A stretch of 64,000 nucleotides of DNA from an uncultured Candidatus Saccharibacteria bacterium. GTDB lineage: Bacteria > Patescibacteriota > Minisyncoccia > Phycocordibacterales > UBA9973. Position numbers and translations under genes: made by a program. The stretch's first letter is position 1. Each line of letters begins with the position of its first letter. The stretch is from assembly GCA_964634365.1 (NCBI GenBank), contig CAZWJU010000002.1, positions 167,150 to 231,149 of the forward strand, given 5' to 3'. The notes under the pieces were generated by a model, which did no database searches, was not told where the DNA came from, and saw only the letters and a list, made by a program, of their open reading frames with translations. Positions 3,623-59,438 of the stretch are shown piece by piece.

Positions 3623-3979
3623 TTATTTATTTTCGTTCGGATTGTGTGGCGGGTTTGAGTTTGGCTCTTTACTTTGTTCCCCGGGGATAATTCTTTGATC
3701 ATCTTCTTTTGGATTACCCTCTGGGTCAATTTCTTCTGGAAAATCTTCTTCTGGATTTTCTTGTTCAATTTTCTTTTTTTCTTCCAAAAGTCTTTTCTTT
3801 ATATTTAAAATAGATTCTTGTTCTTTTTGAAAATCACCTCTTGGTTTATCACGCCGAGCATTGAAAAGCTCTTCTCCTTCTGGAGGATTTTCTGGCTTAA
3901 AATCACTTCGATTCTTTATACCTTTATCTTTATCATCTCCCCCATTTCTCCAAGGCGGAATCCACTCTTTAAAATTCAT
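3623..3979 (-). CDS. Hypothetical low-complexity charged protein (K/E/D/P-rich)
   Basis: 118-aa ORF followed by intrinsic terminator at 3598-3622 (aaccacttttgtaagtggtt); overlapping 78-aa ORF in other frame judged less likely. Confidence 0.35.
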   Translation of the reverse strand: MNFKEWIPPWRNGGDDKDKGIKNRSDFKPENPPEGEELFNARRDKPRGDFQKEQESILNIKKRLLEEKKKIEQENPEEDFPEEIDPEGNPKEDDQRIIPGEQSKEPNSNPPHNPNENK

Positions 3980-4058
3980 AAATAGATTATATCAGAAAAA
4001 TGAATAATCGCTTTTTCGCAAATACCATTTGGGTATTTGGATATATTTTTAATGCTGG

Positions 4059-4253
4059 GTCGGGGTGCCGGGTGAGCCGTGTGAGGGAACCCTGTGGGTG
4101 GACGGCGCAAGACCTTTTGAGATATCTTTACGAATATTTGAAGTAAAGTATCCAAAAGGTGTACAGGTTCTGTAAGAACTCGAACCCAGAGTCGCCTCTA
4201 TAATGATCCTCGAATACCGTTTATATACCTGGAGGTTGTTCTTAAAAGTTTTG
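4059..4253 (-). repeat. tRNA-Pro trailer element: degenerate direct copy of tRNA-Pro 3' half (aggcgactctgggttcgagttc) plus exact 14-nt copy of the tRNA 3' end (gtcggggtgccggg at 4059-4072), with a 70% GC segment in between
   Basis: Direct sequence comparison with tRNA-Pro at 4254-4326; spurious 114-aa ORF 4049..4393 overlies it. Confidence 0.6.
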
Positions 4254-4326
4254 TCGGGGTGCCGGGATTCGAACCCGGAGTCGCCTGTTCCCAAAACAGG
4301 AATGTTAGCCGTTACACTACACCCCG
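4254..4326 (-). tRNA. tRNA-Pro (anticodon TGG), no encoded CCA
   Basis: Reverse complement folds as cggggtg/caccccg acceptor, anticodon stem cctgt/acagg with loop tttggga, T-arm ccggg-ttcgaat-cccgg; 73 nt. Confidence 0.8.
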
Positions 4327-4418
4327 ACAAAACTTTCAAAATACATAACTTACACAAAACTAGCTTGTAGGGCTCAGTATAGCCGAGATACATATAATCT
4401 TCAAGTTTTTTATAAATT

Positions 4419-4595
4419 GTGCGGGATAGGAGAATCGGTCACAAATAATTTTTATTACATAAAATTTTCGCGACCCCGACTCAGCGACAAGCACTCGCTT
4501 CGCTCGTCTTGTATACCGCCTCCGTCTTTCGATTCCCCTACCGCACTAAAACACAAAAGCCCGAACACTAACATGTCCGAACTTTGTGTTTTATG
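4419..4595 (-). repeat. tRNA-Gly(GCC) trailer element: hairpin, inverted tRNA-3'-like fragment (gtctttcgattcccctaccgcac on plus strand at 4520-4545), GAGTCGGGGTCGC core (plus strand 4470-4484 as reverse complement), ending in a 19-nt direct copy of the tRNA 3' end (4419-4437)
   Basis: gtgcgggataggagaatcg occurs at 4419-4437 and again as the genuine tRNA 3' end at 4596-4614. Confidence 0.6.
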
Positions 4596-4666
4596 TGCGG
4601 GATAGGAGAATCGAACTCCTGTCTCATCCTTGGCAAGGACGTGTTCTACCACTAAACCAATCCCGC
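4596..4666 (-). tRNA. tRNA-Gly (anticodon GCC), no encoded CCA
   Basis: Reverse complement: gcgggat acceptor, anticodon loop ttgccaa, T-arm ggagttcgattctcc, 3' atcccgc + discriminator A. Confidence 0.75.
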
Positions 4667-4715
4667 ATATTCTTTGTACCTTGCGATATTAACATTGAAA
4701 TCGATTTTGTGCAAA

Positions 4716-4746
4716 AGAAAAACCCTGAAAATCAGGGTTTAGTTTT
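4716..4746. terminator. Intrinsic terminator hairpin aaaccctga-aaa-tcagggttt with flanking T-run
   Basis: Perfect 9-bp inverted repeat, immediately 3' of 4748..5170(-). Confidence 0.6.
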
Positions 4747-4747
4747 T

Positions 4748-5170
4748 TTAGGCGAAGGCCTCTTCGTTTGCGAGCATAAAGAGCCTCTCTACCCACTCGG
4801 TGTATTTACCGAGTATAAAAAAGGTCAGGAGCGCAAGCACGAGCTCGATTGCCACACACTGCGTGTGTGGAAGCATTTCACGCTTGTACTTGGATGTAAG
4901 CTCTGAGCGAATGTTTGCTGCAACCTCACAAAGAGGATTATTTTCCCTTCTGTGCATTACTGCGCTCACAGCTTTTGAAAAATGAAACGAATAGTGAAAA
5001 TCGTTTTTAGAAACCCCCTCCAGAGCTTCTTCAATCCCCTTGGCCAAGGCTTTAAATTCCTTGTCATGATTTGCATCGCCAAGATTTTTGATTTCAACGA
5101 TTTTGTTTATCAGAAACGTCGTGAGCTCCTGAAAATGCCGTTTCCCGGCTTCTTGTTTTTCTACTCGCAT
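4748..5170 (-). CDS. Hypothetical protein
   Basis: 140-aa ORF with terminator right after stop; no recognisable family. Confidence 0.4.
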   Translation of the reverse strand: MRVEKQEAGKRHFQELTTFLINKIVEIKNLGDANHDKEFKALAKGIEEALEGVSKNDFHYSFHFSKAVSAVMHRRENNPLCEVAANIRSELTSKYKREMLPHTQCVAIELVLALLTFFILGKYTEWVERLFMLANEEAFA

Positions 5171-5273
5171 AAAGTGGTTTTGGGTTATTTAATTTGTTTA
5201 AAGAACATATAAAATATTACACCTGTGTTTTTATTTTGACAAGTATTTTTATTTGTTGAGTTTTGTAAAATAG

Positions 5274-5648
5274 CTAAATTATATTTTCAATAACCTTAAC
5301 TTTGGCTTTTTTGTTTACATTATCCAAAAGGACACATACCAAGTCTATTTGCCACTCTATGTCCTTTATATTCTTCTCATGTAAATATGTTGATATTGTC
5401 CTTTGTAATTTGACCAATTTAAATTGATTCATGTTTTCTTCTGGTCTTATTGTAGAATTGAAGCTCATAGACTTAACTTCTATAAAATAAATCGCTTTAT
5501 TCTTTTTTGCGATAATATCTATTTCGCCAAGTCTTCTTGTGTAATTTCTTTCAATTATTTCAAAACCATGTTTCATGAGAAACATACAAGCGATCTCCTC
5601 GCCCAATTCTCCTTTCTTTTGAGATTTTGAAGTAAAAACCTTAGGCAT
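5274..5648 (-). CDS. yraN: YraN-family (UPF0102) predicted endonuclease
   Basis: GELGEEIACMFLMKHGFEIIERNYTRRLGEIDIIAKKNKAIYFIEVKS matches the YraN core (G.E.A...L...G..I..RN....GEID.IA.....F.EVK). Confidence 0.7.
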   Translation of the reverse strand: MPKVFTSKSQKKGELGEEIACMFLMKHGFEIIERNYTRRLGEIDIIAKKNKAIYFIEVKSMSFNSTIRPEENMNQFKLVKLQRTISTYLHEKNIKDIEWQIDLVCVLLDNVNKKAKVKVIENII

Positions 5649-5768
5649 GTTTCATATGAAACTAATAATTTATGTAAAAATGATTATATTTTAGTTACAC
5701 GTGCAACTTTTCTAATAAAAAACCACTTGTTTCATGTGTAACTATTTAAATATGTTTCACGTGAAACA
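5647..5768. promoter_or_regulatory. Array of four related palindromic sites (half-site GTTTCA / GTTACA): gtttcatatgaaac, gttacacgtgcaac, gtttcatgtgtaac, atgtttcacgtgaaacat; the first overlaps the yraN start codon
   Basis: Perfect 14-bp and 18-bp palindromes read directly; spacing about 40, 35 and 25 bp in the AT-rich leader between yraN and the tRNA cluster. Confidence 0.45.
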
Positions 5769-5992
5769 TATTTTTATATAGGACATGAGTTTTCCACCTA
5801 AAAACTACTAAAATTCTACAAACCATTGAAAAATAAGGATATTTTATTGAAAAAAGACTGTGGATAAATACACAACTTGATGTCCTTTATAAACAATATA
5901 CACGCCTTTATCCACATATCATTGAAAAATAAAGTTTTTTTGTGTATAAAAGGACATTTAAACCTGCTGAACAACAGATACTTTACCTAAAT

Positions 5993-6117
5993 GTGCATCC
6001 GGAGGGATTCGAATATTACATATTCAGGTATTTTTCGCTTTTGTTGCACAAAAGATCGAAAAATCTTTCGAATACCCCCCCCCGCAAGCAAAGAAGTTTG
6101 CTTGCTCGTATGCACCA
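5993..6117 (-). pseudogene. Interrupted tRNA-like locus: 3' end shares ccggagggattcgaa with the neighbouring tRNA-Arg; T-loop appears split by a ~62-nt insertion with duplicated tattcgaa, preceded by a run of 9 G and a gcaagca/tgcttgc stem
   Basis: Reverse complement ...gcggggggggg tattcgaa agattttt...atgtaata ttcgaatccctccggatgcac; acceptor pairs gcatacg/cggatgc with one mismatch. Either an intron-containing tRNA or a decayed duplicate. Confidence 0.3.
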
Positions 6118-6120
6118 ATG

Positions 6121-6192
6121 TGCACCCGGAGGGATTCGAACCCCCAACAACGGTTCCGAAGACCGGTATGATATCCATTTCACTACGGGTGC
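6121..6192 (-). tRNA. tRNA-Arg (anticodon TCG read from loop cttcgga), no encoded CCA
   Basis: Reverse complement gcacccg-ta-gtga..tcat-a-ccggt-cttcgga-accgt-tgtt-ggggg-ttcgaat-ccctc-cgggtgc-a; 72 nt; one 27-43 mismatch. Confidence 0.6.
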
Positions 6193-6270
6193 AGTAAAAT
6201 CAGTATAAGCTTTATATAATAAATTGCAAAATAAGGTTTTCCTGATATAATCCATTTTATATTAATAATC

Positions 6271-6341
6271 GCGGGATTAGTTAAATGGTATAACTTCAGT
6301 TTTCCAAACTGAAATCAAGGGTTCGATTCCCTTATCCCGCA
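6271..6341 (+). tRNA. tRNA-Gly (anticodon TCC; alternative register would give CCA), no encoded CCA
   Basis: gcgggat-ta-gtta-aatggta-taac-t-tcagt-tttccaa-actga-aatc-aaggg-ttcgatt-ccctt-atcccgc-a; shares acceptor stem with tRNA-Gly(GCC). Confidence 0.65.
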
Positions 6342-6470
6342 CAAATAATTTTATAGGGATAGTGAGCAAACTGCTTTGCTCACGGAAGGGAATCGAAAGA
6401 CTTTTCCATACAAGCGAAGCGAGACGGAAAAGTACCTGGCTATGTAATAGCCGATTCCCTTATCCCGCAC
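6342..6470 (+). repeat. tRNA-Gly(TCC) trailer element: inverted partial copy of the tRNA 3' end with embedded hairpin (gtgagcaaaCTGCtttgctcac), GCGAAGCGAG motif, ending with a 20-nt direct copy of the tRNA 3' end (6451-6470) 10 nt upstream of the cca start
   Basis: ccgattcccttatcccgcac at 6451-6470 versus tRNA 3' end ttcgattcccttatcccgcac at 6321-6341; gggaatcgaaagac and atacaagcgaagcgag shared with the Gly(GCC) trailer. Confidence 0.6.
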
Positions 6471-6480
6471 AAAATGCTCT

Positions 6481-7959
6481 ATGAGCAAAACACACGAAAT
6501 TAAAAAAGAATCCATACCTACTGAGATATTGGATATATTGAAAACTCTTGAAAGTTCTGGGTTTGAGGCTTTTATCGTAGGTGGCTGTGTTCGTGACTTA
6601 CTACTAAATCGTAAACCAAAAGATTGGGATATAACAACAAATGCAATACCAGAAGAAATAATACCTTTGTATGAAAAAACAGTTTACGAAAATACCTTTG
6701 GTACCGTTGCTGTAATACTAGAAGATAGTGAAGATAAAACACTTAGACAAATAGAGATAACTCCTTATAGAACAGAAGGGAAGTATTCTGACAAAAGACA
6801 CCCGGATACAGTGTCCTTTAGTAAAGATATAAAAGATGATTTAGCCAGAAGAGACTTTACGGTAAATGCTCTTGCCTACAACCCCTCTAGAAGTCAATTA
6901 ATTGACCTTTTTGAGGGTATAAAGGACATAGAGGTCAAAACTATAAGGACAGTCGGCAATCCTTCTGACAGGTTCTCTGAAGACGCTTTACGCATGATCA
7001 GGGCGATTCGTTTTTCTTGTGAACTTGGTTTTGCTGTGGATAACGAAACACTTCAGGCAATTGTGGAAAACGCACAAAATATTTCAGAAATTTCTACAGA
7101 AAGAATTAGAGACGAATTTGTAAAAATAATAATGTCCAAAGAGCCGGTGATAGGTGTTGCTATGCTCCAAAAAACTGGGATGCTTAAATACATAATCCCA
7201 GAACTAGAAGAGGGTATAGGGTGTGAACAGGGAGGTGCGCACAAATACAATGTATATGAGCACTTACTCCAGGCACTCCAACACTCTGCTGACAAAAACT
7301 GGCCACTAGAGATCAGACTCTCAGCGCTCTTTCACGATATCGGTAAGCCAAAAACTCGAAGAAAGGGAGTCAAGAAGGCGTATACATTCTATGGGCACGA
7401 AGTTGTTGGAGCAAGGATGGTTAAGGTGATTATGGAGAGACTAAAGTTCCCGAAAGATACAAGCGAGCTAGTGACAAAGCTAGTAAGACAACACATGTTC
7501 TTCTCTGACACAGAACAAATATCACTTTCTGCTGTACGAAGAATTGTGCGGAATGTAGGAGTGGAAAATATTTGGACACTTATGAATGTGCGTGAGTGTG
7601 ATCGTGTGGGAATGGCAAAAGTAGAAGCTCCATATCGATTGCGTAAATATCATGCAATGATCGAGGAGGTTCTGCGTGATCCGATATCTGTTTCGCAACT
7701 TGTGGTAGATGGAAATATTTTGATGGGTGAACTCAATGTGAAGCCCGGACCTCGCATGGGCTGGATACTAAACTCACTTCTAGAAGAAGTGCTCGATGAC
7801 CCAGCAAAAAATACTCGCGAGTATCTGGATAAAAGAGTAGGGGAACTGAACGAGTTGGAAGATAAAAGTTTGAAATTGTTAGCTGACAAAGCTAAGCAAA
7901 CAAAAGATGAACTAGAGGAAAAAGAGATCGAGGAATTACACAAGAAGCATAGAGTATAA
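6481..7959 (+). CDS. cca: CCA-adding tRNA nucleotidyltransferase (class II pol-beta NTase + HD domain)
   Basis: N-terminal GGCVRDLLL..KDWDITT nucleotidyltransferase motif, RDFTVNA, C-terminal HD (FHDIGKP); needed because none of the tRNA genes encode CCA. Confidence 0.8.
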   Translation: MSKTHEIKKESIPTEILDILKTLESSGFEAFIVGGCVRDLLLNRKPKDWDITTNAIPEEIIPLYEKTVYENTFGTVAVILEDSEDKTLRQIEITPYRTEGKYSDKRHPDTVSFSKDIKDDLARRDFTVNALAYNPSRSQLIDLFEGIKDIEVKTIRTVGNPSDRFSEDALRMIRAIRFSCELGFAVDNETLQAIVENAQNISEISTERIRDEFVKIIMSKEPVIGVAMLQKTGMLKYIIPELEEGIGCEQGGAHKYNVYEHLLQALQHSADKNWPLEIRLSALFHDIGKPKTRRKGVKKAYTFYGHEVVGARMVKVIMERLKFPKDTSELVTKLVRQHMFFSDTEQISLSAVRRIVRNVGVENIWTLMNVRECDRVGMAKVEAPYRLRKYHAMIEEVLRDPISVSQLVVDGNILMGELNVKPGPRMGWILNSLLEEVLDDPAKNTREYLDKRVGELNELEDKSLKLLADKAKQTKDELEEKEIEELHKKHRV

Positions 7960-11796: not shown

Positions 11797-12561
11797 TTAC
11801 TCAATAGAATCCCACATAAATTGAAATAGCGTCAGGAACGTATTTGCGATATCAGTGTTTTCAATAATCGTGGTGACCATAGCATCTTTGTTTTTAACAG
11901 AAGTTATACTAACCTTGCCTTTGTAAATCAAGATGTAAGCTGGCAAGACAAATTTATCTTTTGGGATTATTTTACGAGTTATATTACGCTCCATATCATG
12001 CGAATACACAACACTAGACATATGCTCTAGTTTTGGAGTTAAGACGTACGACCTAATACCAGCTTGCGATTGTTTCTTTAGTTGTTCGCTTATGAGTGTG
12101 CGAAGCTCTTTGTTTTCGTGGTCGTAGAGAGATCTGAAAACAAATACTTCTTTTACGTTTTTCAAAATATCTGAATAGGTTTCTCTTATACCATCGAAAC
12201 CTTCAAAGAATTTTACATGCGGACGAGAATGTAGAGTGTTGAAGTCGCTTACAAGATGTTCTATTACTTTTCCATAGGCTAGGCTCGCTTCATCTGCGAG
12301 AAGTTTTTTCTCTTCAGCAACTCTTTTGATACTTTCTGGATGTTTTGCTCTCCATAACGCAACCTTTCCTATGTTTTCTACTTTTTCACACAAGCCGATA
12401 GCAGTGAGTTGGTCTAGCACATAGTAAGTAAGCTCTCTACCTACTCCAGCATTTTTAGAAATATTACGAACAGGTAAAAGAGGGGACGAGAGGAGCACTT
12501 CATATATAAGAGCCTGCTCTCGGGTTAATCCTATGCGAATTAGTTCATTTGTGTAGTTCAT
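11797..12561 (-). CDS. TrmB-family transcriptional regulator
   Basis: N-terminus IRIGLTREQALIYEVLLSSP...ISKNAGVGRELTYYVLDQLTAIGL is the same wHTH architecture as 1002..1772. Confidence 0.55.
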   Translation of the reverse strand: MNYTNELIRIGLTREQALIYEVLLSSPLLPVRNISKNAGVGRELTYYVLDQLTAIGLCEKVENIGKVALWRAKHPESIKRVAEEKKLLADEASLAYGKVIEHLVSDFNTLHSRPHVKFFEGFDGIRETYSDILKNVKEVFVFRSLYDHENKELRTLISEQLKKQSQAGIRSYVLTPKLEHMSSVVYSHDMERNITRKIIPKDKFVLPAYILIYKGKVSITSVKNKDAMVTTIIENTDIANTFLTLFQFMWDSIE

Positions 12562-16952: not shown

Positions 16953-17867
16953 TTATTTCTTTGAATGAAATTTTTTATGAACATCGCGAAGCTGCTTGTC
17001 GGTAACATGGGTATATATCTGAGTAGTAGCAATATTTGCATGCCCTAACATCATCTGTACAGAACGTATGTCTGCACCGTTTGAAAGCAGGTCAGTTGCA
17101 AAAGAGTGGCGTATTACATGCGGAGTAACTTTTTTAGAGATACCGGCTTTAATTGCATAGTGTTTTACGATTCTCTCGATTGATCTTTGTGTTAGCCGAC
17201 CACCGCTTTGGCCTTTGTTTCTTGCATGCTGAACAAACATTGGTTCGTCTGTGTCAGTACGCTTTTTCAAATAATCACGAATAGCAGATTTTGCGGAATC
17301 TGATAAAAAAACCACACGAACCTTTTCACCCTTTCCACGAATTGAAAACTCATCTTTAGATAAATCTAAATCTCGATTTAGAGAACACAACTCGGATAAA
17401 CGCAATCCTGTTGAGAAAAATAATTCTAATATAGCTCTATCTCGCAATGATTTTAAATCATCTTTGTCTGGAGCTTTCAGTAGGCGATTTAATTCTTCGA
17501 CAGTTATCAGGTCTAGATGTCTCTCTTTTATTTTAGCGAGCTCTATCGCATCTGGAGAGATTGCTTGTATACCTCGCTTCATTAGATATTTTAAAAACCT
17601 GCGAAGAGCGATTAGGTAGTAGTTTTGAGTGTTTTTCTTCATTGTGGCACTAGACTGTCCACGTACATGTATCCCTGGCTGCCTGTTTAAATACAATCTG
17701 TATTCACGAATTGAATCGTCGGTTATATCTTTTAGACTGTCAGATTTTATAAACTCAAAAAAACGAGACAGGTACCTATCATAATTTGAAACTGTATTGA
17801 GACTTGCTCCACGTTCAATTTCCATGTATTCCAAAAATTGACGTTTTAGATTTTGAACCTCTGACAT
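16953..17867 (-). CDS. xerC: Tyrosine site-specific recombinase XerC/XerD family
   Basis: C-terminal HVIRHSFATDLLSNGADIRSVQMMLGHANIATTQIYTHV contains the R..H..R..Y catalytic box II. Confidence 0.8.
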   Translation of the reverse strand: MSEVQNLKRQFLEYMEIERGASLNTVSNYDRYLSRFFEFIKSDSLKDITDDSIREYRLYLNRQPGIHVRGQSSATMKKNTQNYYLIALRRFLKYLMKRGIQAISPDAIELAKIKERHLDLITVEELNRLLKAPDKDDLKSLRDRAILELFFSTGLRLSELCSLNRDLDLSKDEFSIRGKGEKVRVVFLSDSAKSAIRDYLKKRTDTDEPMFVQHARNKGQSGGRLTQRSIERIVKHYAIKAGISKKVTPHVIRHSFATDLLSNGADIRSVQMMLGHANIATTQIYTHVTDKQLRDVHKKFHSKK

Positions 17868-26491: not shown

Positions 26492-26638
26492 GCCTTGCAT
26501 CATACATTAAAAGGCTGTTTTGGGCAAGATTTTGTATTGTTTTTTTATAAAATATTATTAACAGTTTATACACAATTGTATTTTTATTTTAGGTCTTTTT
26601 ATTATCAATCTGTAGACTATAATGAGTTAACTAAACTT

Positions 26639-27985
26639 ATGATGGAAAACAAACAACTTTGGGAAACATGCTTATCTGAGATTGAACAGTCTGTTTCTAG
26701 GGCAAATTTCAGTACATGGTTTAAAAATACTTCTATTACTAAACAAGATTCTGGAACCGCTTATATTGGTGTCCCAAATGAATTCGTAAAAGATTGGCTT
26801 TTCAATAAATATCACAAGTTAATACTTAAAACTCTTATGAATCATTCAGAAAATGTTCGTGGTATTGAGTTTGTTATAGTAAAACATGATATAAGGCAAA
26901 AAATAGAAGATATAGAGCAGAAATCAATCTTAAACAAAGAACTGCCTCTGGCTGATCTATATATAAACAAAGAAGATAATCTTAATCCAAGATATATATT
27001 TGATGGATTTATTGTTGGAGGGTTCAATGAACTAGCTTTTGCAGCCTCACAAGCTATTGTAAGCAAGCCTGGAACAAGTTATAACCCATTTTTCGTATAT
27101 GGAGGTACAGGACTTGGTAAAACGCATTTAATCCAAGCAATAGGTAATACTATTAAAACAAAATACCCAGAAAAAAGGGTGCATTATATAACTCTTGAAA
27201 AATTTGCTACTGATCTAATAAACTCTTTTCAAACAAATAAAGCCAATTCATTTAAAGAAAAGTATAGAAAATACGATGTTTTGATTATTGATGATATCCA
27301 GTTTGTAGGGAAGATGGAAAAAACTCAAGAAGAACTTTTTCATACATTTAATACTTTTTATGAAAATAATAAACAAATAATATTTTCATCAGACAAACAC
27401 CCTAATTATATCCCGGGATTAGAAGACCGTATGAAGTCTAGATTTCAAGCTGGAATGATTATAGATATAGGCGAACCTGAATATGAATCTAGATTAGCTA
27501 TACTTAAAGCTAAAGTAAAAGAGCAGGGTGTACCTATAAACGATGATGTTGTTGATTTTATAGCTTCTTCTATAAATGGATCTATTCGTGAACTTGAAGG
27601 TAGTCTAAATGCTATAGTTTGCCAAACTAGATTGAAAAATAAAGAGATTTCTTTAACAGAGGCAAAGAATTTGATTAAAAACAATATTAGACCAAAGAAA
27701 AGTGTCTCTATAGACGAAGTGGTTAAAGTAGTTGCTCAGTTTTATAATATAGATGAATCTACTGTATACGAAAAAACACGTAGAAAAGAGATTGTTAAAA
27801 CGAGACAAATGATAATGTACCTTCTTCGTGAAGATTTTAACGTTTCATATCCATTGATAGGTCAAAAACTAGGTGGAAAAGATCACACAACAGTTATACA
27901 TTCTTTCTTGAAGATAAAAGACGATCTAAAAACAAACCAAACATTGGCGCAGGAATTAGAACAGATAAGAGTTATGTTTAAATAA
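26639..27985 (+). CDS. dnaA: Chromosomal replication initiator DnaA (start at MMENKQLWE; the ORF-track N-terminal 48 codons are likely non-coding leader)
   Basis: Walker A GGTGLGKTHL, DnaA signature ...DDIQF, sensor, C-terminal HTH (VKTRQMIMYLLRE...DHTTV). Confidence 0.95.
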   Translation: MMENKQLWETCLSEIEQSVSRANFSTWFKNTSITKQDSGTAYIGVPNEFVKDWLFNKYHKLILKTLMNHSENVRGIEFVIVKHDIRQKIEDIEQKSILNKELPLADLYINKEDNLNPRYIFDGFIVGGFNELAFAASQAIVSKPGTSYNPFFVYGGTGLGKTHLIQAIGNTIKTKYPEKRVHYITLEKFATDLINSFQTNKANSFKEKYRKYDVLIIDDIQFVGKMEKTQEELFHTFNTFYENNKQIIFSSDKHPNYIPGLEDRMKSRFQAGMIIDIGEPEYESRLAILKAKVKEQGVPINDDVVDFIASSINGSIRELEGSLNAIVCQTRLKNKEISLTEAKNLIKNNIRPKKSVSIDEVVKVVAQFYNIDESTVYEKTRRKEIVKTRQMIMYLLREDFNVSYPLIGQKLGGKDHTTVIHSFLKIKDDLKTNQTLAQELEQIRVMFK

Positions 27986-28194
27986 TGTTAATAACTGTTT
28001 AAAACGTGTAGATAAAAATATGATAAATAAATTAAAAACTCAATTTATTTTTATAAACACAAGATTAAACATAAAAATTATATTTTAAATATGATAAATA
28101 AATTAAAAATAACTTTATATATCAAGATTAAATATAGATATCCACATATCCACAGGGCTAATATAAGTATTTAATTAAATAAAAAGAAAATACT
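27986..28194. promoter_or_regulatory. oriC candidate: AT-rich dnaA-dnaN spacer with two tandem DnaA-box-like 9-mers (ATATCCACA at 28138-28155) and a 22-bp direct repeat AATATGATAAATAAATTAAAAA x2 (28018-28040, 28089-28111)
   Basis: Read directly from sequence; canonical position between dnaA and dnaN. Confidence 0.6.
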
Positions 28195-29292
28195 ATGAAT
28201 ATAAATACTACTGCAAAAAAAATAAAACAAGCTATAAACTTTACAGAAAAGATAACTGGTAAAAATCTAACATTACCTATTCTAAGTTCTATTCTCATTA
28301 TAGCTTCAGGTAAAACTCTTAAATTTAGATCAACAAACCTAAATCTAGGTATAGAAGTTGATATACCAGTAAAAGTAGTGAAAGACGGTGTTGTGGCTGT
28401 AAGAGGGGACGTTTTATCTCAAATATTTTCAACAATACAAGACAATGAAGATATAGAACTAAAACAAGAAAATGATAACTTATTGATAGTAACTAAAAAC
28501 AATCAGCTGTTAATAAAATCTAATTCTTATGAAGATTTTCCAACAATACCAGTTGTTTCTGGTGATAAACATATATTGAATTCAAAAAAAATAGTAGAAG
28601 GTATAAAATCAGTAGTTTATAGCTGTTCTATATCAGAAATAAAACCAGAAATGGCTAGTGTTTACATATATTCTGATGATGGAAATCTAGTTTTTGTAGC
28701 TACAGATTCATTTAGACTTGCAGAGAAAAAAATCAAATCAAAACATAGTACAGATTTTTCACCAATATTGATCCCTTTTAAAAATATAAATGAAATATTA
28801 AGGATATTAGAATCAACCTCTGAAGATATAGAGTGTGTAACCAGTAAAAATCAAATATCTTTCATGTTTGATGGTATATACATAACATCAAGGTTAATAG
28901 ATGGTGTTTTCCCAGATTATAAACAAATAATACCTAAAAATTTTACAACCGAAGTTGTTTTACTAAGACAAGATTTTTTAAATGCTTTAAAAATATCTAA
29001 TATATTTTCAGATAAATTTAATCAAATAACTTTCAATATAGACCCAAAAAGTAAAACATGTGAATTAAACGCTAGAAACAATGATATAGGGGAAAATAAA
29101 ACAAAAATTGACGCAACAATAGAAGGTGAACCAATTTCAATGAGCTTCAACTACAAGTATATTATCGATTGTTTTCAATCTATAAATCAAGATAGTCTAA
29201 CTTTAAAATTTAACGGCTCAAACAAACCGCTAATCATAAAAGGTGGTAGTGATCAAACATTTATATATTTAGTTATGCCTATGAATAGATAA
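28195..29292 (+). CDS. dnaN: DNA polymerase III beta sliding clamp
   Basis: 365 aa, three-domain clamp pattern; position after dnaA. Confidence 0.9.
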   Translation: MNINTTAKKIKQAINFTEKITGKNLTLPILSSILIIASGKTLKFRSTNLNLGIEVDIPVKVVKDGVVAVRGDVLSQIFSTIQDNEDIELKQENDNLLIVTKNNQLLIKSNSYEDFPTIPVVSGDKHILNSKKIVEGIKSVVYSCSISEIKPEMASVYIYSDDGNLVFVATDSFRLAEKKIKSKHSTDFSPILIPFKNINEILRILESTSEDIECVTSKNQISFMFDGIYITSRLIDGVFPDYKQIIPKNFTTEVVLLRQDFLNALKISNIFSDKFNQITFNIDPKSKTCELNARNNDIGENKTKIDATIEGEPISMSFNYKYIIDCFQSINQDSLTLKFNGSNKPLIIKGGSDQTFIYLVMPMNR

Positions 29293-29294
29293 AA

Positions 29295-29555
29295 ATGTTC
29301 AATAATATTGAAAATTTTCTACTAAAAAGATTAAACCCAGCAATAGCGCACAATAATTTTTTAGTTAATATATCTCTGATAATTAAAAAAAATACAAATA
29401 TTGATATTTCTGAGAGAAAATTAAAAATAATAAATAAAACTTTATTTATTAAAACTAATCCAATAAGAAAACAAGAAATTTTACTTAAAAAAGATAAAAT
29501 AATCTTAGATATTAAGGATTTAAATTATAAAACAGATATTGATAATATAGCCTAA
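29295..29555 (+). CDS. Questionable small ORF (86 aa, low complexity, AT-rich)
   Basis: Only ORF-track support; overlaps 3' end of the convergent PBP gene. Confidence 0.2.
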   Translation: MFNNIENFLLKRLNPAIAHNNFLVNISLIIKKNTNIDISERKLKIINKTLFIKTNPIRKQEILLKKDKIILDIKDLNYKTDIDNIA

Positions 29556-32065
29556 TTTATATCTATATTGATAGATATATTTTTTTTATTGTATACAGTA
29601 TCGTAAACTATTGCATTTAAAGTATGATTTCCTTTTGAAATGTTACTTTCTGAAGGTATAAATACAAAGTCTTTTGCATTACTAGTTCCTAAAAATATAT
29701 TGTCTACAAATATATCAAATTTTTGAAAAGGATATGTACCATCATAGTCTAGATTTACACTGAGTGGTAAAGTTTGAGAATACTGCACTCCATTTTTAGG
29801 ATTTGAAAAAGAAACATCAGGAATATTATTTTCTGTGTGAATATTGTCGTAAGTCGTTGGTATTTCATCTATAGAAACACTGTTGTATAGATATTTATTT
29901 TTCATCCACCAATCCTGCACTGTTGTTTCCCAGCGTAAATACTGTGAATCATCACTAGGATTTGCTGGAATAGGACCTCTTGGGTTATTTTTATTTACCC
30001 AATGAAGTATGTCGTGTACATTTGTAACAACTATTTCTTTTCTTGTTTCTGGTGGAGTAAAATCAGTAGCAAGCTTACCAGAAATAGTATCTATTACATA
30101 GCTTTCTCCTCCCATCCACTCTCCTCTTAGTATTGGTTTTAGTATATTTGGATCATTTTCTATAATAGGTTTTTCAAAATCTTCTTGAGGGATTGCTTTT
30201 AGTGCTATATTCATAAATTCATTCCACATTGGGCCAGATATAGAAGAACCTTTTTTCATAGGCTTATTATCATTGTTTCCTGACCAAACACCAACAACTA
30301 CAGATGGAGTATATCCAATCAACCAAGCATCTTTATTATTGTTTGTAGTTCCTGTTTTTGCTGCTACTTCATATCCAGGGAATACCATAAATGAATTTGA
30401 TCCAAAGAGTGGAGTTCTAGCCACATTGTCTGCCAATATATCTGAAATAGTTAAAGCTACATTACTATCTAGAGCATTTGTTGGGTTTTCTTTGAATTCT
30501 TCCAGTACTTGCCCATCATGGTCTTCTATTTTCAATACTCCATTATAAGGATTTCTAATGCCTTTATTTGCAAAAACACTATAACTAGAAACCATATCAA
30601 GCAAACTAACTTCTCCACCTCCAAGTACAAGGGTTAAACCATAAACACTTGCATCTGATAGTGTTGTTATTCCCATAGTTCTAGCTGTTGCTATAGAGTC
30701 TTGTACGCCTGCTAAATATAAAAGCTTAACAGATGTGACGTTTCTAGATTGCCCCAAAGAATTTCTTAGATTTATAGGACCAACATATTTACCATCATAG
30801 TTTTCAGGGCTATAACAATCATCCTGGCTGTTTCCAGGTAAAGCTACACCATAAGCATTACAACCACCCTGAAACTCAGTAGGAACATCAAATAAAACAG
30901 TATTTGCAGTATAGCCCTCTTTTAGTGCTGTGGCATATACAAAGGGTTTAAATGATGATCCTGGCTGTCTCTCGGCTGTTGCTATATTGAAGTTTCCATC
31001 TATCTCTTTATCAAAATAATCTCTAGAACCAACCATAACCAGTATTTGTCCTGTTTTTGGATCTATTGCAACCATACTTGCGTTACTTGCGTTCCAATCT
31101 ACTTCATTTTTTAAAGCATTTCTTTTTACTATTTCCTCAGCTTGTTCTTGTAGTGAATAATCCAAAGTAGTAATAACTTTTAACCCTCCGTTTTCTACAG
31201 CATCTTGCCCATATTGTTCTTCCAAGTACTCTTTTATAAAGAAAACAAAATGAGGAGCTTTTATACCCTTACCTTCTACAGTCTTAAATTCAACAACCTC
31301 TGCTTTTGCTGTTTGGTATGTCACCTCGTCAATCATCCCAATTTCTAACATTCTGGATAGGACTGTGTTTTTTCTATCGTCTAACTTATCTCTATGCTGA
31401 CCAAAAGGTGAGTAATATGTAGGTGCTTTTGGTATTGCAGCCAAGTAGGCCGCTTCTGCTAAAGTTAAATCTATTGGGTTTTTGTTGAAAAATGTTTTTG
31501 AAGCTTCTTGTACACCGTAAATACTTCCTCCATAAGGTGCGTCATTTAGATAAACAGCAAGTATTTCATCTTTACTCATAACCCCATCTAGTTTTATAGC
31601 CAAAATCCATTCTTTGAATTTTCTAGTTATTGTTTTTTCAGTAGTAAGTAGAGTATTTTTAATTACTTGTTGAGTTATAGTAGAGCCACCTTGTGAAAAA
31701 TCTCCACTAAAAATATTTGCAATAATTGCTCGAACAATAGAAGTTGGTCTAATACCATTGTGTTCATAAAAAGAAGAATCTTCTATTGCAATTGTTGCGT
31801 TTTTTATATTTTCACCCATTTGCTCATAAGGTATAACTGTACGTCTGAAATCCTGATGAACATCATAAAGCAAAACCTCACCTGTTCTATCGTATATTTT
31901 GGTCGAACGAGCAATCTTACGCTCTTCAAAAGATTTAAAATCTGGTAGCTCTATAGTAGATAGCCAAACAGCTCCAATAGAGCAAAAAAGCACAAAAAAT
32001 GTCCCAACAATAAATAAAATACTTCTTTTTTTATGATTCATATGGAGTTTATTCATATTTAGCAA
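29552..32065 (-). CDS. mrcA: Class A penicillin-binding protein (PBP1A: GT51 transglycosylase + transpeptidase) with C-terminal extension
   Basis: GT51 motifs (EDSSFYEHNGI, GGSTITQQ), transpeptidase SSFKP active-site motif (SxxK), SXN and KTG(T) motifs; N-terminal TM. Confidence 0.85.
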   Translation of the reverse strand: MLNMNKLHMNHKKRSILFIVGTFFVLFCSIGAVWLSTIELPDFKSFEERKIARSTKIYDRTGEVLLYDVHQDFRRTVIPYEQMGENIKNATIAIEDSSFYEHNGIRPTSIVRAIIANIFSGDFSQGGSTITQQVIKNTLLTTEKTITRKFKEWILAIKLDGVMSKDEILAVYLNDAPYGGSIYGVQEASKTFFNKNPIDLTLAEAAYLAAIPKAPTYYSPFGQHRDKLDDRKNTVLSRMLEIGMIDEVTYQTAKAEVVEFKTVEGKGIKAPHFVFFIKEYLEEQYGQDAVENGGLKVITTLDYSLQEQAEEIVKRNALKNEVDWNASNASMVAIDPKTGQILVMVGSRDYFDKEIDGNFNIATAERQPGSSFKPFVYATALKEGYTANTVLFDVPTEFQGGCNAYGVALPGNSQDDCYSPENYDGKYVGPINLRNSLGQSRNVTSVKLLYLAGVQDSIATARTMGITTLSDASVYGLTLVLGGGEVSLLDMVSSYSVFANKGIRNPYNGVLKIEDHDGQVLEEFKENPTNALDSNVALTISDILADNVARTPLFGSNSFMVFPGYEVAAKTGTTNNNKDAWLIGYTPSVVVGVWSGNNDNKPMKKGSSISGPMWNEFMNIALKAIPQEDFEKPIIENDPNILKPILRGEWMGGESYVIDTISGKLATDFTPPETRKEIVVTNVHDILHWVNKNNPRGPIPANPSDDSQYLRWETTVQDWWMKNKYLYNSVSIDEIPTTYDNIHTENNIPDVSFSNPKNGVQYSQTLPLSVNLDYDGTYPFQKFDIFVDNIFLGTSNAKDFVFIPSESNISKGNHTLNAIVYDTVYNKKNISINIDIN

Positions 32066-46930: not shown

Positions 46931-47003
46931 CCTCCCGTAGCTCAGTCGGTAGAGCAGCTCCCTTTTAAGGAGAGGGTCGTAGGTTCGATTCCTACCGGGA
47001 GGA
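46931..47003 (+). tRNA. tRNA-Lys (anticodon TTT), no encoded CCA
   Basis: cctcccg-ta-gctc-agtcggta-gagc-a-gctcc-cttttaa-ggaga-gggtc-gtagg-ttcgatt-cctac-cgggagg-a. Confidence 0.7.
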
Positions 47004-47180
47004 CAAGGTCGAAAAAGTGGACTGCTCCACTTTTGAGTACACTTGTCCTAGACGGAAACATGTTTCGTTAGCAGACGAAACAGTTGAGTCGGGGTCGCAG
47101 AAAAATACGAGCGGCGGCGAGTATTTTATCTGTGACGACACATTCACTCTTAAATAAGGAAAGATTCCTACCAAGATAAT
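47004..47180 (+). repeat. tRNA-Lys trailer element: hairpin aaaagtggaCTGCtccactttt, core GAGTCGGGGTCGC (47086-47098) ...ACGAGCGGCGGCGAGTA..TGTGACGACA, ending with a 10-nt copy of the tRNA 3' region (gattcctacc, 47163-47172)
   Basis: Aligned by eye with the element after tRNA-Arg(GCG) (53146-53300) and after tRNA-Gly(GCC). Confidence 0.55.
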
Positions 47181-53073: not shown

Positions 53074-53145
53074 GGCCCCGTAGTTCAACGGATAGAATGC
53101 AAGATTGCGGATCTTGTGATCCAAGTTCGATTCTTGGCGGGGTCA
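53074..53145 (+). tRNA. tRNA-Arg (anticodon GCG as read; loop ttgcgga), no encoded CCA
   Basis: ggccccg-ta-gttc-aacggata-gaat-g-caaga-ttgcgga-tcttg-tgat-ccaag-ttcgatt-cttgg-cggggtc-a; 72 nt. Confidence 0.6.
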
Positions 53146-53420
53146 CATATAAGAAAAAGACTGGACTGCTCCAGCCTTTTTCTTATATGTGACGGGCGCA
53201 GTGATGTTTTATTAGAGAACAAAACCACGAGCCGGGGTCGAGAAATTTTGCGAGTGGCGACGAGTAAAATATTCGTGACCACAAGGTGGTATAATGAGCA
53301 GACTTAGTAACTTGTGACCACATTAAATCTCTATGTGACGACAAGAAATTGTTTGTAGCCACACTACTAAAAGTCGCGATAAATTTCCATCAGGAAATTT
53401 ACTTGTGATCATACCTAAAA
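53146..53420 (+). repeat. tRNA-Arg trailer element expanded into an iteron-like array: 16-bp-stem hairpin with loop actggaCTGCtccagc (53146-53193), core GAGCCGGGGTCG (53229-53240)...GCGAGTGGCGACGAGTA, then 5-6 copies of (T)TGTGAC(N)ACA-like sites
   Basis: Sites read at 53180(tatgtgacggg), 53271(ttcgtgaccaca), 53311(cttgtgaccaca), 53332(tatgtgacgaca), 53356(ttgtagccaca), 53401(cttgtgatcata); followed by an AT-rich stretch to 53610. Confidence 0.55.
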
Positions 53421-53614
53421 ATACCAAAAGGTGTTTTTTAGATCTATACCTTGTAGAATATATAATATTGACTTAATATTATATTTATGCTATAATTCTA
53501 AAATAGCTCTTTAAACTATATTGATTTGCATCAATATTTATTGAGTTTTCTTGGTTTCTTATTAGGGGATTCAAGATGACTCAGTAAATATTTAAATTTA
53601 AATCAATATAAAAC

Positions 53615-58652: not shown

Positions 58653-59438
58653 ATGGATAAAAGAAAAGAAATTCTAATAGAGCTTGGACTTGGCAACCAT
58701 GAGGCACTCGTATACAGTGCTCTCTTGGAAGAGTCTTCTTGCGGTGCAACAAAACTTTCTAAAAAGGTAGGGCTAGCGCGAAGCAGTGTCTATACAACCC
58801 TTTCTGGTCTTATAAGTAAGGGTCTAGTGGGCGAGAAGAAGAGTGGTAGTACAACTGAATTTAAGGCAGGCTCAATTGAGGCATTAGAAACATATCTTGA
58901 AAAACAAAAAGCCAATTCTATAAGAAAATTAAATATATTATCTAGTTCAAAAAGCCTCTTAAAAATTGAAAAGATCGAACTAGATGAAAGTAAGCCCGAA
59001 ATAATTACTTTCTCAGGTGTAGATGGTCTCAAGCGTATTTACTTACAAATGCTTCGAGATGCAAAATCAGGAGATGAGCTTTTAATGATACGTGATGAAT
59101 TTGTATGGAATAGTAAATGGAGATTTATTTTTGAGCCACAGTGGCATATACGTGTAAGAAAAATCAGAAAAGAAAAAAATATTAAAGCAAAATTACTTGT
59201 GAACAACTCTAAGATCGAAAAATCTAAACAAAATTTTTATAAATCACGCAGGAGTACAACATTTAGATTTTTATCAAAAGATTTATGTTTGGAAAATTAT
59301 GCTGAATATATAATTGGTAATACTATGTGCGTACTATCCACGGAAAAAGATAATCCAGTAGGAATTTTTATCCGAAACAAGACTATGGCTAAAAATTCCG
59401 CTAGAATTTTTGAAAATATCTGGAAAAATTCTAAATAG
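58653..59438 (+). CDS. TrmB-family transcriptional regulator
   Basis: ILIELGLGNHEALVYSALLEESSCGATKLSKKVGLARSSVYTTLSGLISKGLV wHTH. Confidence 0.55.
   Translation: MDKRKEILIELGLGNHEALVYSALLEESSCGATKLSKKVGLARSSVYTTLSGLISKGLVGEKKSGSTTEFKAGSIEALETYLEKQKANSIRKLNILSSSKSLLKIEKIELDESKPEIITFSGVDGLKRIYLQMLRDAKSGDELLMIRDEFVWNSKWRFIFEPQWHIRVRKIRKEKNIKAKLLVNNSKIEKSKQNFYKSRRSTTFRFLSKDLCLENYAEYIIGNTMCVLSTEKDNPVGIFIRNKTMAKNSARIFENIWKNSK

Follow-up and report, generated by a model that had tools for sequence, protein, structure and literature searches.

Six of the seven tRNA genes in the window, the 64,000-nucleotide stretch of DNA analysed here, are followed by a short trailer of a common kind. The trailers belong to a large and apparently undescribed family of structured modules in Paceibacteria (CPR bacteria). 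They are best read as non-autonomous, RNA-like cassettes that recombine at the tRNA end, and not as relic att sites. In this reading, to which we assign a probability of about one half, they are protein-less units that are mobile both horizontally and within genomes, and that nest in the 3' ends of tRNA and tmRNA genes of Paceibacteria/Nomurabacteria.

Read along the tRNA-sense strand, each cassette consists of an optional hairpin with a T-run, a segment termed A', a structured core, and a terminal repeat termed DR2. A' is the exact Watson-Crick reverse complement of the tRNA 3' end and is often split, its acceptor part and T-arm part being separated by a conserved hairpin, P2. The core is one of at least three conserved, covarying structured types. 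DR2 repeats the tRNA sequence directly, beginning at T-loop position 56/57 and ending 0-4 nt beyond the discriminator. The whole cassette measures about 90-190 nt and is non-coding; the tRNA upstream is intact, and the downstream gene retains its original junction. The features in the window are as follows.

4059-4072, minus strand: exact 14-nt copy of tRNA-Pro, comprising the T-stem 3' strand, the acceptor 3' strand, the discriminator and a C
4073-4179, plus strand (opposite to tRNA-Pro): type-3 core between the halves of the displaced tRNA-Pro 3' copy
4180-4197, minus strand: displaced tRNA-Pro copy (17/18), from the variable region through the T-stem 5' strand to the start of the T-loop
4254-4326, minus strand: tRNA-Pro(TGG), whose 3' end provides one copy of the 14-nt repeat (4253-4266)
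4418-4437, minus strand: DR2 of the Gly(GCC) element (20 nt), identical to tRNA positions 56-73 followed by CA
4438-4527, minus strand: type-2 core of the Gly(GCC) element, GACGGAG ... GAGTCGGGGTCG (4471-4482) ... A/T hairpin ... GTGAC
4528-4546, minus strand: A' of the Gly(GCC) element, the reverse complement of the tRNA 3' end, sense GTGCGGTAGGGGAATCGAA
4547-4593, minus strand: spacer hairpin directly 3' of tRNA-Gly(GCC), AAAACACAAA...TTTGTGTTTT, from the repeat pair and the fold
4596-4666, minus strand: tRNA-Gly(GCC); its last 18 nt and 2 nt of trailer (4594-4613) form the repeat copy DR1
5992-6119, minus strand: complete type-1 element behind tRNA-Arg(TCG) (6121-6192), 109.3 bits with the type-1 model
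6348-6473, plus strand: complete type-1 element behind tRNA-Gly(TCC) (6271-6341), 125.6 bits with the type-1 model
47005-47172, plus strand: degenerate type-2 trailer behind the tRNA at 46931-47003, with GAGTCGGGGTCG at 47086-47097
53147-53330, plus strand: type-2 trailer behind tRNA-Arg(GCG) (53074-53145), with GAGCCGGGGTCG at 53229-53240

A first-pass annotation of this DNA had reported displaced tRNA 3' ends behind tRNA-Pro and tRNA-Gly(GCC). Both repeats described for tRNA-Pro are present: the exact 14-nt copy of the 3' end, GTCGGGGTGCCGGG, occurs at 4059-4072 and 4253-4266, and the degenerate copy of the variable arm and T-arm at 4180-4197 is identical to 4269-4286 at 17 of 18 positions. 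The 14-mer lies inside a 25-nt repeat family with a start-to-start spacing of 194. The core of this trailer has CGCAAGACCTT ... AAGGTGTACAGNNTCTGTAAG in common with the related loci L068, L138 and L001, and L001 carries this core in the sense orientation; the type-1 model matches the trailer weakly (plus strand, 4075-4199, E=0.23). Behind tRNA-Gly(GCC), a 19-nt repeat had been placed 177 nt away. The displaced copy exists and is exact (TGTGCGGGATAGGAGAATCG at 4418-4437 and 4594-4613), but it is 20 nt long and the spacing is 176. The inverted tRNA-3'-like fragment noted between the copies proved to be the A' of the element, at 4528-4546. In the predicted fold, the two strands of the spacer-hairpin stem run on into A (the 3' end of the tRNA) and into A', respectively. 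The type-2 core gives a weak match to the type-1 model (E=0.005).

The same repeat architecture, missed earlier, is found behind tRNA-Arg(TCG) and tRNA-Gly(TCC), and a degenerate form of it behind the tRNA at 46931 and tRNA-Arg(GCG). In the Arg(TCG) element, DR2 (5990-6013) is identical to 6117-6140 at 23 of 24 positions. The Gly(TCC) repeat is 22 nt long (6324-6345 and, as DR2, 6452-6473), A' is divided into 6355-6361 and 6386-6397 with P2 at 6362-6383, and the start codon of cca lies 7 nt beyond the end of DR2 (6473). The trailer at 47005-47172 retains only a 10-nt repeat remnant (47163-47172), and beyond the Arg(GCG) trailer more GTGAC(C/G)ACA-type units extend up to about 53420.

Trailers of this type also occur elsewhere, and the repeat family suggested by the first-pass annotation therefore survives the refuting test set there. 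A covariance model of type 1 detected 55 copies in 81 sources (the window and 80 related Paceibacteria/Nomurabacteria species genomes), and a stringent pattern search of metagenomes added at least 123 further type-1 copies. Among the 123 listed metagenomic copies, 107 lie at most 300 nt downstream of a same-strand tRNA, with 16 amino acids covered, and two are preceded by a tmRNA. The duplicated 3' ends recur in related genomes: in the window and 80 related loci, 31 of 258 tRNAs have a downstream copy of their own 3' end of at least 14 nt, while an upstream control of equal size gave one such copy for the same 258 tRNAs. By our own arithmetic, comparing a 34-nt query with 450 nt of flank would give ∼3e-5 exact matches of 14 nt or longer by chance.

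Aligned with one another, the trailers are homologous across different tRNAs and share covarying helices. In the type-1 alignment, 96.9% of cells are paired, compared to 70% after shuffling and 40-51% when slid, and double changes occur in 24 of 24 pairs (score 0.662 against 0.19). The P4 closing pair of 129 distinct elements is A-T in 70, G-C in 57, G-T in 1 and A-C in 1. Among the type-2 sequences, 10 have GC and 7 have AU at one pair, and a G.U pair is invariant (18/18). The strand that folds is the tRNA-sense strand. On this strand G.U exceeds A.C by 47:23 (p=0.006), which, together with the invariant G.U of type 2, points to RNA rather than to a DNA intermediate. Searches with Rfam 15, whose families include group I/II introns, ribozymes, tmRNA and Y-like RNAs, matched tRNA and tmRNA alone at gathering score, and no credible family was found at E<=10 in window positions 3950-4750 and 5950-6500. 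Hammerhead and other small ribozyme cores were rejected, as the junction sequences, judged by eye, do not fit.

Each A' and each DR2 matches its own tRNA. In 43 of 54 copies, the first nucleotide of DR2 corresponds to tRNA position 56 or 57; the length of DR2 has a mode of 19 nt and is mostly 17-22, within a full range from 3-7 nt, found among type-2 repeats, to 31 nt, and the right repeat boundary is variable. In 60 of 107 listed metagenomic copies, DR2 agrees with its own tRNA over 14 nt or more, and matches to other tRNAs reach 13 nt at most. At non-Watson-Crick pairs of the tRNA (mostly G.U), A' gives the Watson-Crick partner of the 3' strand in 48 of 55 cases and copies the 5' strand in one. 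A' is thus a templated complement and not a copy of the tRNA 5' strand. Of 83 positions with a diverged DR2, A' is complementary to the tRNA version at 77 and to the DR2 version at 2, so A' and DR2 track the tRNA independently; selection for pairing between A' and DR2 was not seen, with no compensation at these 83 informative positions. A degenerate tandem duplicate of the tRNA was also discarded, because A' complements the T-loop and discriminator and follows the 3'-strand complement at non-Watson-Crick positions. No A' left over from a different tRNA, as a sign of a fresh jump, was found, and low scores reflect conserved 1-nt bulges. Termini read by eye show no terminal inverted repeats, left or right.

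A hairpin with a T-run separates tRNA and element in 61 of 105 metagenomic copies among the matches listed (about 60%). Forms with a short spacer and no terminator keep DR2; forms with a long spacer and a terminator keep the acceptor part of A'. The idea that the two copies simply age neutrally was rejected, since DR2 identity and A' complementarity are not positively correlated and differ by architecture. The opposite conservation patterns of the two architectures are not explained by simple neutral decay.

Occupancy is patchy. Elements occur at the orthologous tRNA of relatives in 10 of 68 cases for Arg-tcg, 8/67 for Gly-gcc, 19/54 for Pro-tgg and 15/54 for Gly-tcc (12-35%). Related genomes differ by exactly one module and one 17-22-nt repeat, some with aligned flanks 99-100% identical. 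For the window itself, a look-up of contigs from the same strain yielded short pieces of about 1.5 kb only. Between L107 and L192, the difference is one type-2 element plus one 18-nt repeat, and between L066 and L059 it is a 101-nt gap with a 22-nt overlap and flanks 98.6-100% identical; L030/L033, L015/L054, L208/L145 and L027/L021 are further exact presence/absence pairs with overlapping junctions. A variant at the 5' end of tRNA-Ser, whose 19-nt repeat takes in 7 nt of non-tRNA upstream flank, is polymorphic between L111 and L191, on contigs 99-100% identical. The repeat in L068 takes in 12 nt of downstream flank. Tandem stacks are found in L107, L068 and L016, and many copies are truncated, nested or inverted. 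Ser-tRNA elements share a P5 variant, which favours tRNA-specific lineages. The Arg-tcg elements of the window, L045, L046 and L072 share a derived bulge, with a perfect or near-perfect DR2, although L045 and L046 have cca proteins with no more than 66-67% identity to that of the window; this conservation would suit a host-level RNA function equally well. Cassettes are gained or lost as exact units, stack in tandem, decay, and form tRNA-specific lineages. Insertion and deletion between repeats look alike in presence/absence data alone. Among the explanations offered by the first-pass annotation, a miniature tRNA-targeting element family fits best, given the patchy occupancy, the precise repeat-bounded presence and absence, and the stacking and decay.

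The elements encode no protein. There is no ORF inside the elements, inside P4 or between half-elements, and neither an autonomous nor a split version was found. The only recombinase encoded in the window, a Xer-like tyrosine recombinase (16953-17867), lies at least 10 kb from the trailers, the window ORFs include no transposase or cas1, and no recombinase or transposase tied to the elements was found. Pattern scans of IMG/VR for a phage or attP copy gave no matches or only chance ones, in DNA that was coding or rich in GC, and neither free or circular copies nor copies on plasmids or phages were found.

Relic att sites of successive integrations, as the first-pass annotation had envisaged, would be leftovers of ordinary kilobase-sized integrative islands or prophages that entered at tRNA genes and were then excised or deleted, with decayed island DNA between the repeats. 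tRNA and tmRNA genes are classical integrase targets, and the cassettes share with tRNA-integrating islands and prophages, which tyrosine or serine recombinases insert, the tRNA/tmRNA 3' target, the regenerated tRNA, repeat-exact gain and loss, and a displaced copy that starts in the T-loop, as is typical of the class, and stands as a direct repeat at the distal end of the insert. The larger islands that the annotation had proposed to look for do exist at such tRNAs in the clade: an 8.7-kb island with a large serine recombinase at tRNA-Asn in L184, and a 3-kb island with an OLD-family nuclease in L016. However, both lie between the tRNA and a pre-existing small element and have their own distinct end motif, and they are therefore independent insertions upstream of the elements; a link between the two was rejected. 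Unlike islands, the cassettes cluster at ∼90-190 nt instead of kilobases and have no protein cargo. As the annotation had observed, the repeat-bounded segments hold no integrase gene, nor a remnant of one, and no ORF fits inside them. Their inter-repeat DNA is not unrelated from one tRNA site to the next, nor randomly decayed, but forms a conserved family of >170 copies with covarying helices and an internal reverse complement of the att sequence fitted to each tRNA, which att relics leave unexplained. Because the segments are homologous, covary and carry this reverse complement, the relic reading is not supported; it is largely refuted by the conserved structure, and we consider it very improbable. 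A MITE-like transposon seems unlikely as well. Here, in a cut-and-paste or replicative mode, a transposase or Cas1-like integrase acting in trans would make staggered cuts ∼19-20 bp apart at tRNA gene ends, leaving a long target-site duplication; copies would survive only where the duplication reaches the gene end, and A' would later be perfected by intrastrand template switching (quasi-palindrome correction). The prevailing repeat lengths agree with this, as do the flanks duplicated at tRNA-Ser and in L068, the two orientations of the core in a T-loop (the Pro trailer of the window versus L001 and L068), and the strict Watson-Crick complementarity of A' even at G.U sites. The cassettes resemble MITEs, REPINs and CIMEs in being small, non-coding, multi-copy and patchy, with decayed copies and an enzyme presumably in trans. 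In contrast to these, they lack terminal inverted repeats, a short fixed target duplication (the repeats span 3-7 to 31 nt, with a variable right boundary) and REP-type GTAG palindromes, and they sit strictly at tRNA/tmRNA ends with tRNA-specific flanks. Fresh transposition should sometimes leave an A' that matches a foreign tRNA, yet this is never seen, and neither transposase nor cas1 is present in the window. Casposons extend over kilobases and carry cas1, polB and terminal inverted repeats; their Cas1 integrase generates a target duplication of about 14-15 bp at tRNA 3' ends. The cassettes share a long duplication comprising the tRNA gene 3' end, but have neither these genes and termini nor the kb size, and their modal duplication is 19 nt.

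The first-pass annotation also suggested a structured RNA made with the tRNA, a proposal that is partly supported. In this view the cassette would primarily be a cis-element or a gene for an accessory RNA, transcribed by read-through from the promoter of the tRNA, with mobility secondary and exchange by recombination. The 5' part of the RNA would be antisense to the last ∼20 nt of the tRNA and its 3' part would repeat these up to the RNase Z site; the RNA could fold on itself, with A'/DR2 stems closing a P2-P5 domain, or swap partners with the tRNA 3' end. The RNA might serve in 3'-end processing or punctuation for a downstream mRNA, in protection or quality control of the precursor, or as a decoy or antisense for factors acting on tRNA 3' ends. 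This is consistent with the orientation of every copy with its tRNA, within tens of nucleotides, with the strong covariation and conserved junction nucleotides, and with the excess of G.U and the invariant type-2 G.U on the sense strand. DR2 ends at the discriminator plus 0-4 nt, which coincides with the processing site. The gene downstream often has the same orientation and begins within a few nucleotides of DR2, as cca does in the window, and in L003 cca comes directly after the tRNA. That DR2 and A' each track the tRNA and not each other, that predicted MFE folds of tRNA plus trailer use A/A' and tRNA 5' strand/DR2 pairing, and that elements are kept across genomes with such diverged cca proteins, also argue for it. 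On the other hand, with only 12-35% of orthologous tRNAs occupied the element is dispensable, and the spacer hairpin and T-run of about 60% of listed metagenomic copies imply that most transcription should end before the element. The truncated, nested or inverted copies and the non-tRNA flank duplicated by the 5'-end variant likewise count against it. Nor is tRNA identity mimicked: the G3.U70 of tRNA-Ala becomes A-U. mascRNA, plant-mitochondrial t-elements and viral TLS are comparable as RNA structures coupled to tRNA-type ends, but the cassettes have no T-loop or elbow mimic, the T-loop being replaced by the core, and identity pairs are lost, with 48 of 55 non-Watson-Crick pairs turned into Watson-Crick pairs. 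Overall, an accessory RNA is possible but well short of probable. A literature search found no description of these trailers; the nearest match was the group I introns that Patescibacteria tRNA genes host at position 35/36 (PMC13011429). These too are extra RNA elements hosted by tRNA genes, but the cassettes lie outside the anticodon loop, a complete canonical tRNA that needs no splicing precedes every element, and no group I model matched.

For mobile cassettes, we infer that insertion and excision would proceed by recombination within the repeated tRNA end, used as an att-like site. One route would employ a trans-acting site-specific recombinase on a small circular, probably single-stranded, intermediate, in which the A'/DR2 stem would rebuild a double-stranded copy of the tRNA gene end; this model gives the observed order tRNA-A / spacer / A' / core / A. 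In CTX-phi attP(+), recombined by XerCD, and in integron attC sites, which measure roughly 60-140 nt, a single strand folds and inverted segments rebuild a target-like duplex. The cassettes are similar in size, in their strand-specific fold and in a stem that would reproduce the tRNA-gene-end duplex, a likeness that is one of resemblance only; their target is the tRNA gene end and not dif or attI, and they contain neither a cassette ORF nor a phage genome. Alternatively, the cassettes may be taken up as DNA and recombine homologously, the tRNA serving as left arm and DR2 as right arm. In the simplest view, the mobilising factor would recognise the conserved core, or the core would be a small RNA cargo. 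For A' and DR2 to fit each tRNA species so closely, the cassettes must either have persisted as tRNA-specific lineages for a long time or undergo a copying step.

More tentatively, and with odds well below even, the cassettes may constitute a class of guide-bearing, protein-less mobile RNA or ssDNA, A' being a ∼20-nt guide for the tRNA gene end, DR2 the matching donor or attachment half, and the covarying core a handle for a host or trans-acting enzyme. If true, this would be nucleic-acid-guided integration aimed at the most conserved genes of the cell. An equally novel alternative, at the same doubtful level, is that of accessory RNAs standing in for the tRNA 3' end, which would pair with the 3' end of their own tRNA and could act as a repair template, a decoy or a processing switch.

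The cassettes represent structured, conserved non-coding DNA that is annotated in no database, yet lies behind most tRNAs of the window and occurs in streamlined genomes. Extrapolated genome-wide at the density of the window, their share of the DNA could be about 1%. Assemblies seem to break at tRNA loci on account of the repeats, which can also mislead predictors of islands and att sites. If the cassettes are RNAs, they would form a new and abundant class tied to tRNA maturation; unusual RNA biology is already known from this phylum. If they are mobile, they would be the smallest known elements to land in tRNA and tmRNA genes, protein-less and with a built-in complement of the target, and would bear on how nucleic acid can encode target specificity.

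Displaced copies of tRNA 3′ ends lie behind the following two genes of the window.

4254-4326, minus strand: tRNA-Pro(TGG) (ARAGORN, Rfam)
4596-4666, minus strand: tRNA-Gly(GCC) (ARAGORN, Rfam)

The first-pass annotation had described an exact 14-nt copy of the tRNA-Pro 3′ end and a degenerate copy of its variable/T-arm, and a repeat finder recovered both, the former at 4059-4072 (identical to 4253-4266) and the latter at 4180-4197 (17/18). The exact 3′-end repeat reported for tRNA-Gly(GCC) is also present, but as a 20-mer (4418-4437 and 4594-4613) at a spacing of 176, not as 19 nt at 177; the inverted tRNA-3′-like fragment of this trailer was located at 4528-4546. A k-mer scan uncovered the like arrangement behind tRNA-Arg(TCG) (5990-6013 versus 6117-6140, 23/24 identical) and tRNA-Gly(TCC) (22 nt, 6324-6345 and 6452-6473, inverted piece at 6386-6397), and in degenerate form at the tRNA at 46931 and tRNA-Arg(GCG). 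tRNA-Trp is the only window tRNA without a trailer. Across the window and 80 related loci, 14 nt or more of the 3′ terminus recur downstream for 31 of 258 tRNAs, against 1 in the upstream control, and the downstream copies are therefore beyond chance.

ARAGORN calls the tRNA at 46931-47004 (plus strand) a tRNA-Stop with anticodon TTA. With the stem GCUCC/GGAGA the anticodon loop is CUUUUAA, the canonical tRNA-Lys(UUU) loop, and the suppressor call probably reflects a register slip of one base rather than recoding. None of the seven window tRNA genes encodes CCA; the post-discriminator base is C in all seven, usually followed by A. Relatives of the window's cca gene place the host in Candidatus Nomurabacteria/Paceibacterota (CPR), and the DNA is cellular; its gene products include PNPase, PBP1, DnaA/DnaN, RuvABC, Pol I and the CCA-adding enzyme. 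dnaA and dnaN occupy 26495-29292, GC content is lowest in the window (24.7%) at 28-30 kb (28001-30000), and a replication origin probably lies inside the window. Four paralogous TrmB-like HTH regulators (~255 aa) occur in these 64 kb.

4253, 4595, 6120, 6342, 16251, 47004, 53146: tRNA 3′ flanks
6481-7959: CCA-adding enzyme gene (cca), directly behind one tRNA/element unit
1002-1772, 11797-12561, 58653-59438, 59441-60235: TrmB-like HTH regulators

The trailers are homologous to one another by alignment. Read on the tRNA-sense strand, they often begin with a hairpin and T-run; the hairpin stem runs on outward, on one side into A, the 3′ terminus of the tRNA itself, and on the other into the complement of A. 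Next come A′, which reverse-complements the tRNA 3′ end, a structured core, and finally DR2, in which that 3′ end is repeated directly. Within A′, a conserved hairpin, P2 (GCAAACUKCUUUGC), splits the acceptor and T-arm parts. Three core types were distinguished.

Type 1: CGAAAGRC, P4, GYACCUG, P5; window Arg-TCG and Gly-TCC
Type 2: GRCGGAG, hairpin, GAGYCRGGGUCG, A/U hairpin, GUGAC; window Gly-GCC, the tRNA at 46931 and Arg-GCG
Type 3: CGCAAGACCUU ... AAGGUGUACAGNNUCUGUAAG; window Pro

The Pro trailer is a rearranged family member, in which the two halves of a displaced 34-nt tRNA-Pro 3′ copy enclose a core that lies on the opposite strand; in L001, the closest relative (cca protein 84% identical), the same core stands in sense orientation behind its own tRNA-Pro. 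Behind the type-2 core of tRNA-Arg(GCG) (53260-53430, plus strand), about five ynGTGAC(C/G)ACA units, for example cgtgaccacaagg, ttgtgaccacatt, tatgtgacgacaag, tgtagccacact and ttgtgatcatacc, resemble the 3′ end of a type-2 module repeated several times. A type-1 subvariant found in many loci (e.g. L006, L040, L058, L078, L107, L116, L139) has a conserved 14-nt insert, AAGYGTACTCRCGG, directly after the CGAT of DR2, and its DR2 is shortened to the T-stem strand. In L107 one DR2 also has a P5-like mini-hairpin inserted behind its CGA, and nested insertions appear to concentrate in the T-loop remnant.

RNAalifold supported P2-P5 in 20 type-1 copies, with double changes at 17 of 24 pairs. A covariance model built from these copies found 55 in the 81 sources; 96.9% of cells in that alignment pair (70% when shuffled, 40-51% when slid), a figure that leans upward because the alignment was fitted to the model, and compensatory change occurs at 24/24 pairs. 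The P4 closing pair in 129 distinct elements (A-T 70, G-C 57, G-T 1, A-C 1), an independent and pattern-neutral test of the structure, agrees with the model alignment. Type 2 has a long-range covarying pair, GC in 10 and AU in 7. The structure is thus under selection. G.U exceeds A.C on the tRNA-sense strand (47 versus 23, p=0.006) and one type-2 G.U pair is invariant in 18/18 sequences, which identifies this as the folding strand; RNA is the natural reading of the folded molecule, sense single-stranded DNA being the alternative.

In metagenomes, a stringent type-1 pattern gave at least 120 loci holding at least 123 elements. Among the matches listed, 107 of 123 elements have a tRNA on their own strand no more than 300 nt upstream (16 amino acids), two follow tmRNA genes, and most of the remainder are at contig ends. 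Both A′ and DR2 of the tmRNA elements fit the tmRNA 3′ end.

L128 10211-10594, minus strand: type-1 element behind tmRNA
L209 3910-4306, plus strand: type-1 element behind tmRNA

In 60 of the 107 listed elements, DR2 agrees for 14 nt or more with the tRNA to which the element belongs, the longest match to a different tRNA being 13 nt, and A′ shows the mirror pattern. DR2 starts at tRNA position 56 or 57 in 43/54 cases and ends 0-4 nt past the discriminator (modal length 19). At tRNA stem pairs that are not Watson-Crick (mostly G.U), A′ complements the 3′ strand by Watson-Crick rules in 48/55 and copies the 5′ strand in 1/55 (15 versus 1 in the T-stem subset, which is free of placement bias), so the element is not a decayed tandem tRNA. 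Nor is tRNA identity preserved, G3.U70 of tRNA-Ala becoming A-U. At 83 positions DR2 has come to differ from the tRNA; A′ pairs with the tRNA version at 77 of them and with the DR2 version at 2: each tracks the tRNA, not the other. Two architectures contrast in these copies, and simple ageing does not account for the difference.

Short spacer without terminator (n=44): DR2 at least 17/18 in 70%; acceptor part of A′ weak, mean 4.4/8
Long spacer with hairpin and T-run (n=61): DR2 at least 17/18 in 25%; acceptor part of A′ perfect (8/8) in 52%

Only 12-35% of orthologous Arg, Gly and Pro tRNAs in 80 related species carry an element, and in L003 cca directly follows tRNA-Gly with none between. An all-against-all comparison turned up tRNA-adjacent indels with flanks that overlap by 13-34 nt in the empty genome, an overlap that marks the repeat. 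L107 corresponds to L192 with one type-2 element and one 18-nt repeat added; a 101-nt gap separates L066 from L059, where the flanks (98.6-100% identical) overlap by 22 nt. At tRNA-Ser 5′ ends, a related module copies the first 12-16 nt of the tRNA, followed by a P2-like hairpin, the core and the real tRNA. It is present or absent as 126 nt between the 99-100% identical contigs L111 and L191, with a 19-nt repeat of which 7 nt are non-tRNA flank.

L111 520-680 (versus L191): tRNA-Ser 5′ module
L151 4330-4600: tRNA-Ser 5′ modules, tandem
L225 500-720: tRNA-Ser 5′ module

Elements are stacked in L107, L068 and L016, and truncated and inverted copies occur. A P5 variant is private to the Ser-tRNA elements and suggests tRNA-specific lineages. 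The slots of Gly-TCC, Gly-GCC and Arg-TCG differ in position and orientation between window 4250-6480 and L001 4700-7400, and upstream of cca in relatives (Arg<- ->Gly) alternates with (Gly<- ->Arg), a pattern suggestive of inversions between tRNA/element units. Between L176 (9190-9290) and L202, contigs ~99% identical, the differing segment consists of repeated palindromes (CAGCCACAGGTCSGACCTGTGGCTG), another small palindromic insertion family, in place of the 5′ portion of a type-1 element, the second of a tandem.

The reading we favour, with a probability of roughly 0.5, is that the trailers are mobile but non-autonomous cassettes, with the repeated tRNA end as their site of recombination. 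A small circle of spacer, A′, core and A would recombine with the tRNA gene inside A; this model reproduces the observed element order exactly, and would account for the strict Watson-Crick match of A′ to its target and for the way in which A′ as well as DR2 follows the tRNA. Alternatively, homologous recombination after DNA uptake could use the tRNA and DR2 as its two arms. We infer the enzyme and the intermediate, as well as any RNA product. A transposon with a long target duplication is unlikely and fits less well than a mobile cassette or an accessory RNA; the window encodes no transposase, its only recombinase being Xer-like (16953-17867), and no ORF-bearing version of the element was found. 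IMG/VR pattern scans found no copies either. Relic att sites would leave repeated tRNA ends as well, yet they fit less well than the same two readings and are very improbable. A link to the kb-sized islands that occupy the same tRNAs was rejected: these inserted independently, each between the tRNA and a pre-existing element.

L184 88-8720: integrase-type island, 8.7 kb; large serine recombinase, D12 methyltransferase, DUF6997, DUF4238
L016 4560-7110: integrase-type island; OLD-family nuclease and HTH protein

The L184 island and the sites at L145 ~12600 and L172 ~1235 end in a common motif, ATAGGTTCTAACYTYG, then the last ~8 nt of the tRNA, which looks like an attR side; the L016 island ends in a related sequence, GTTCGAACTTCC...

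The main rival, an accessory RNA co-transcribed with the tRNA, is possible at lower odds. The selected structure and its folding strand are consistent with it. No Rfam family matches the trailers, and literature searches returned only the group I introns that Patescibacteria tRNAs host at position 35/36 (PMC13011429). The mobile-cassette and accessory-RNA readings are compatible, since an RNA gene could itself be mobile as a cassette.
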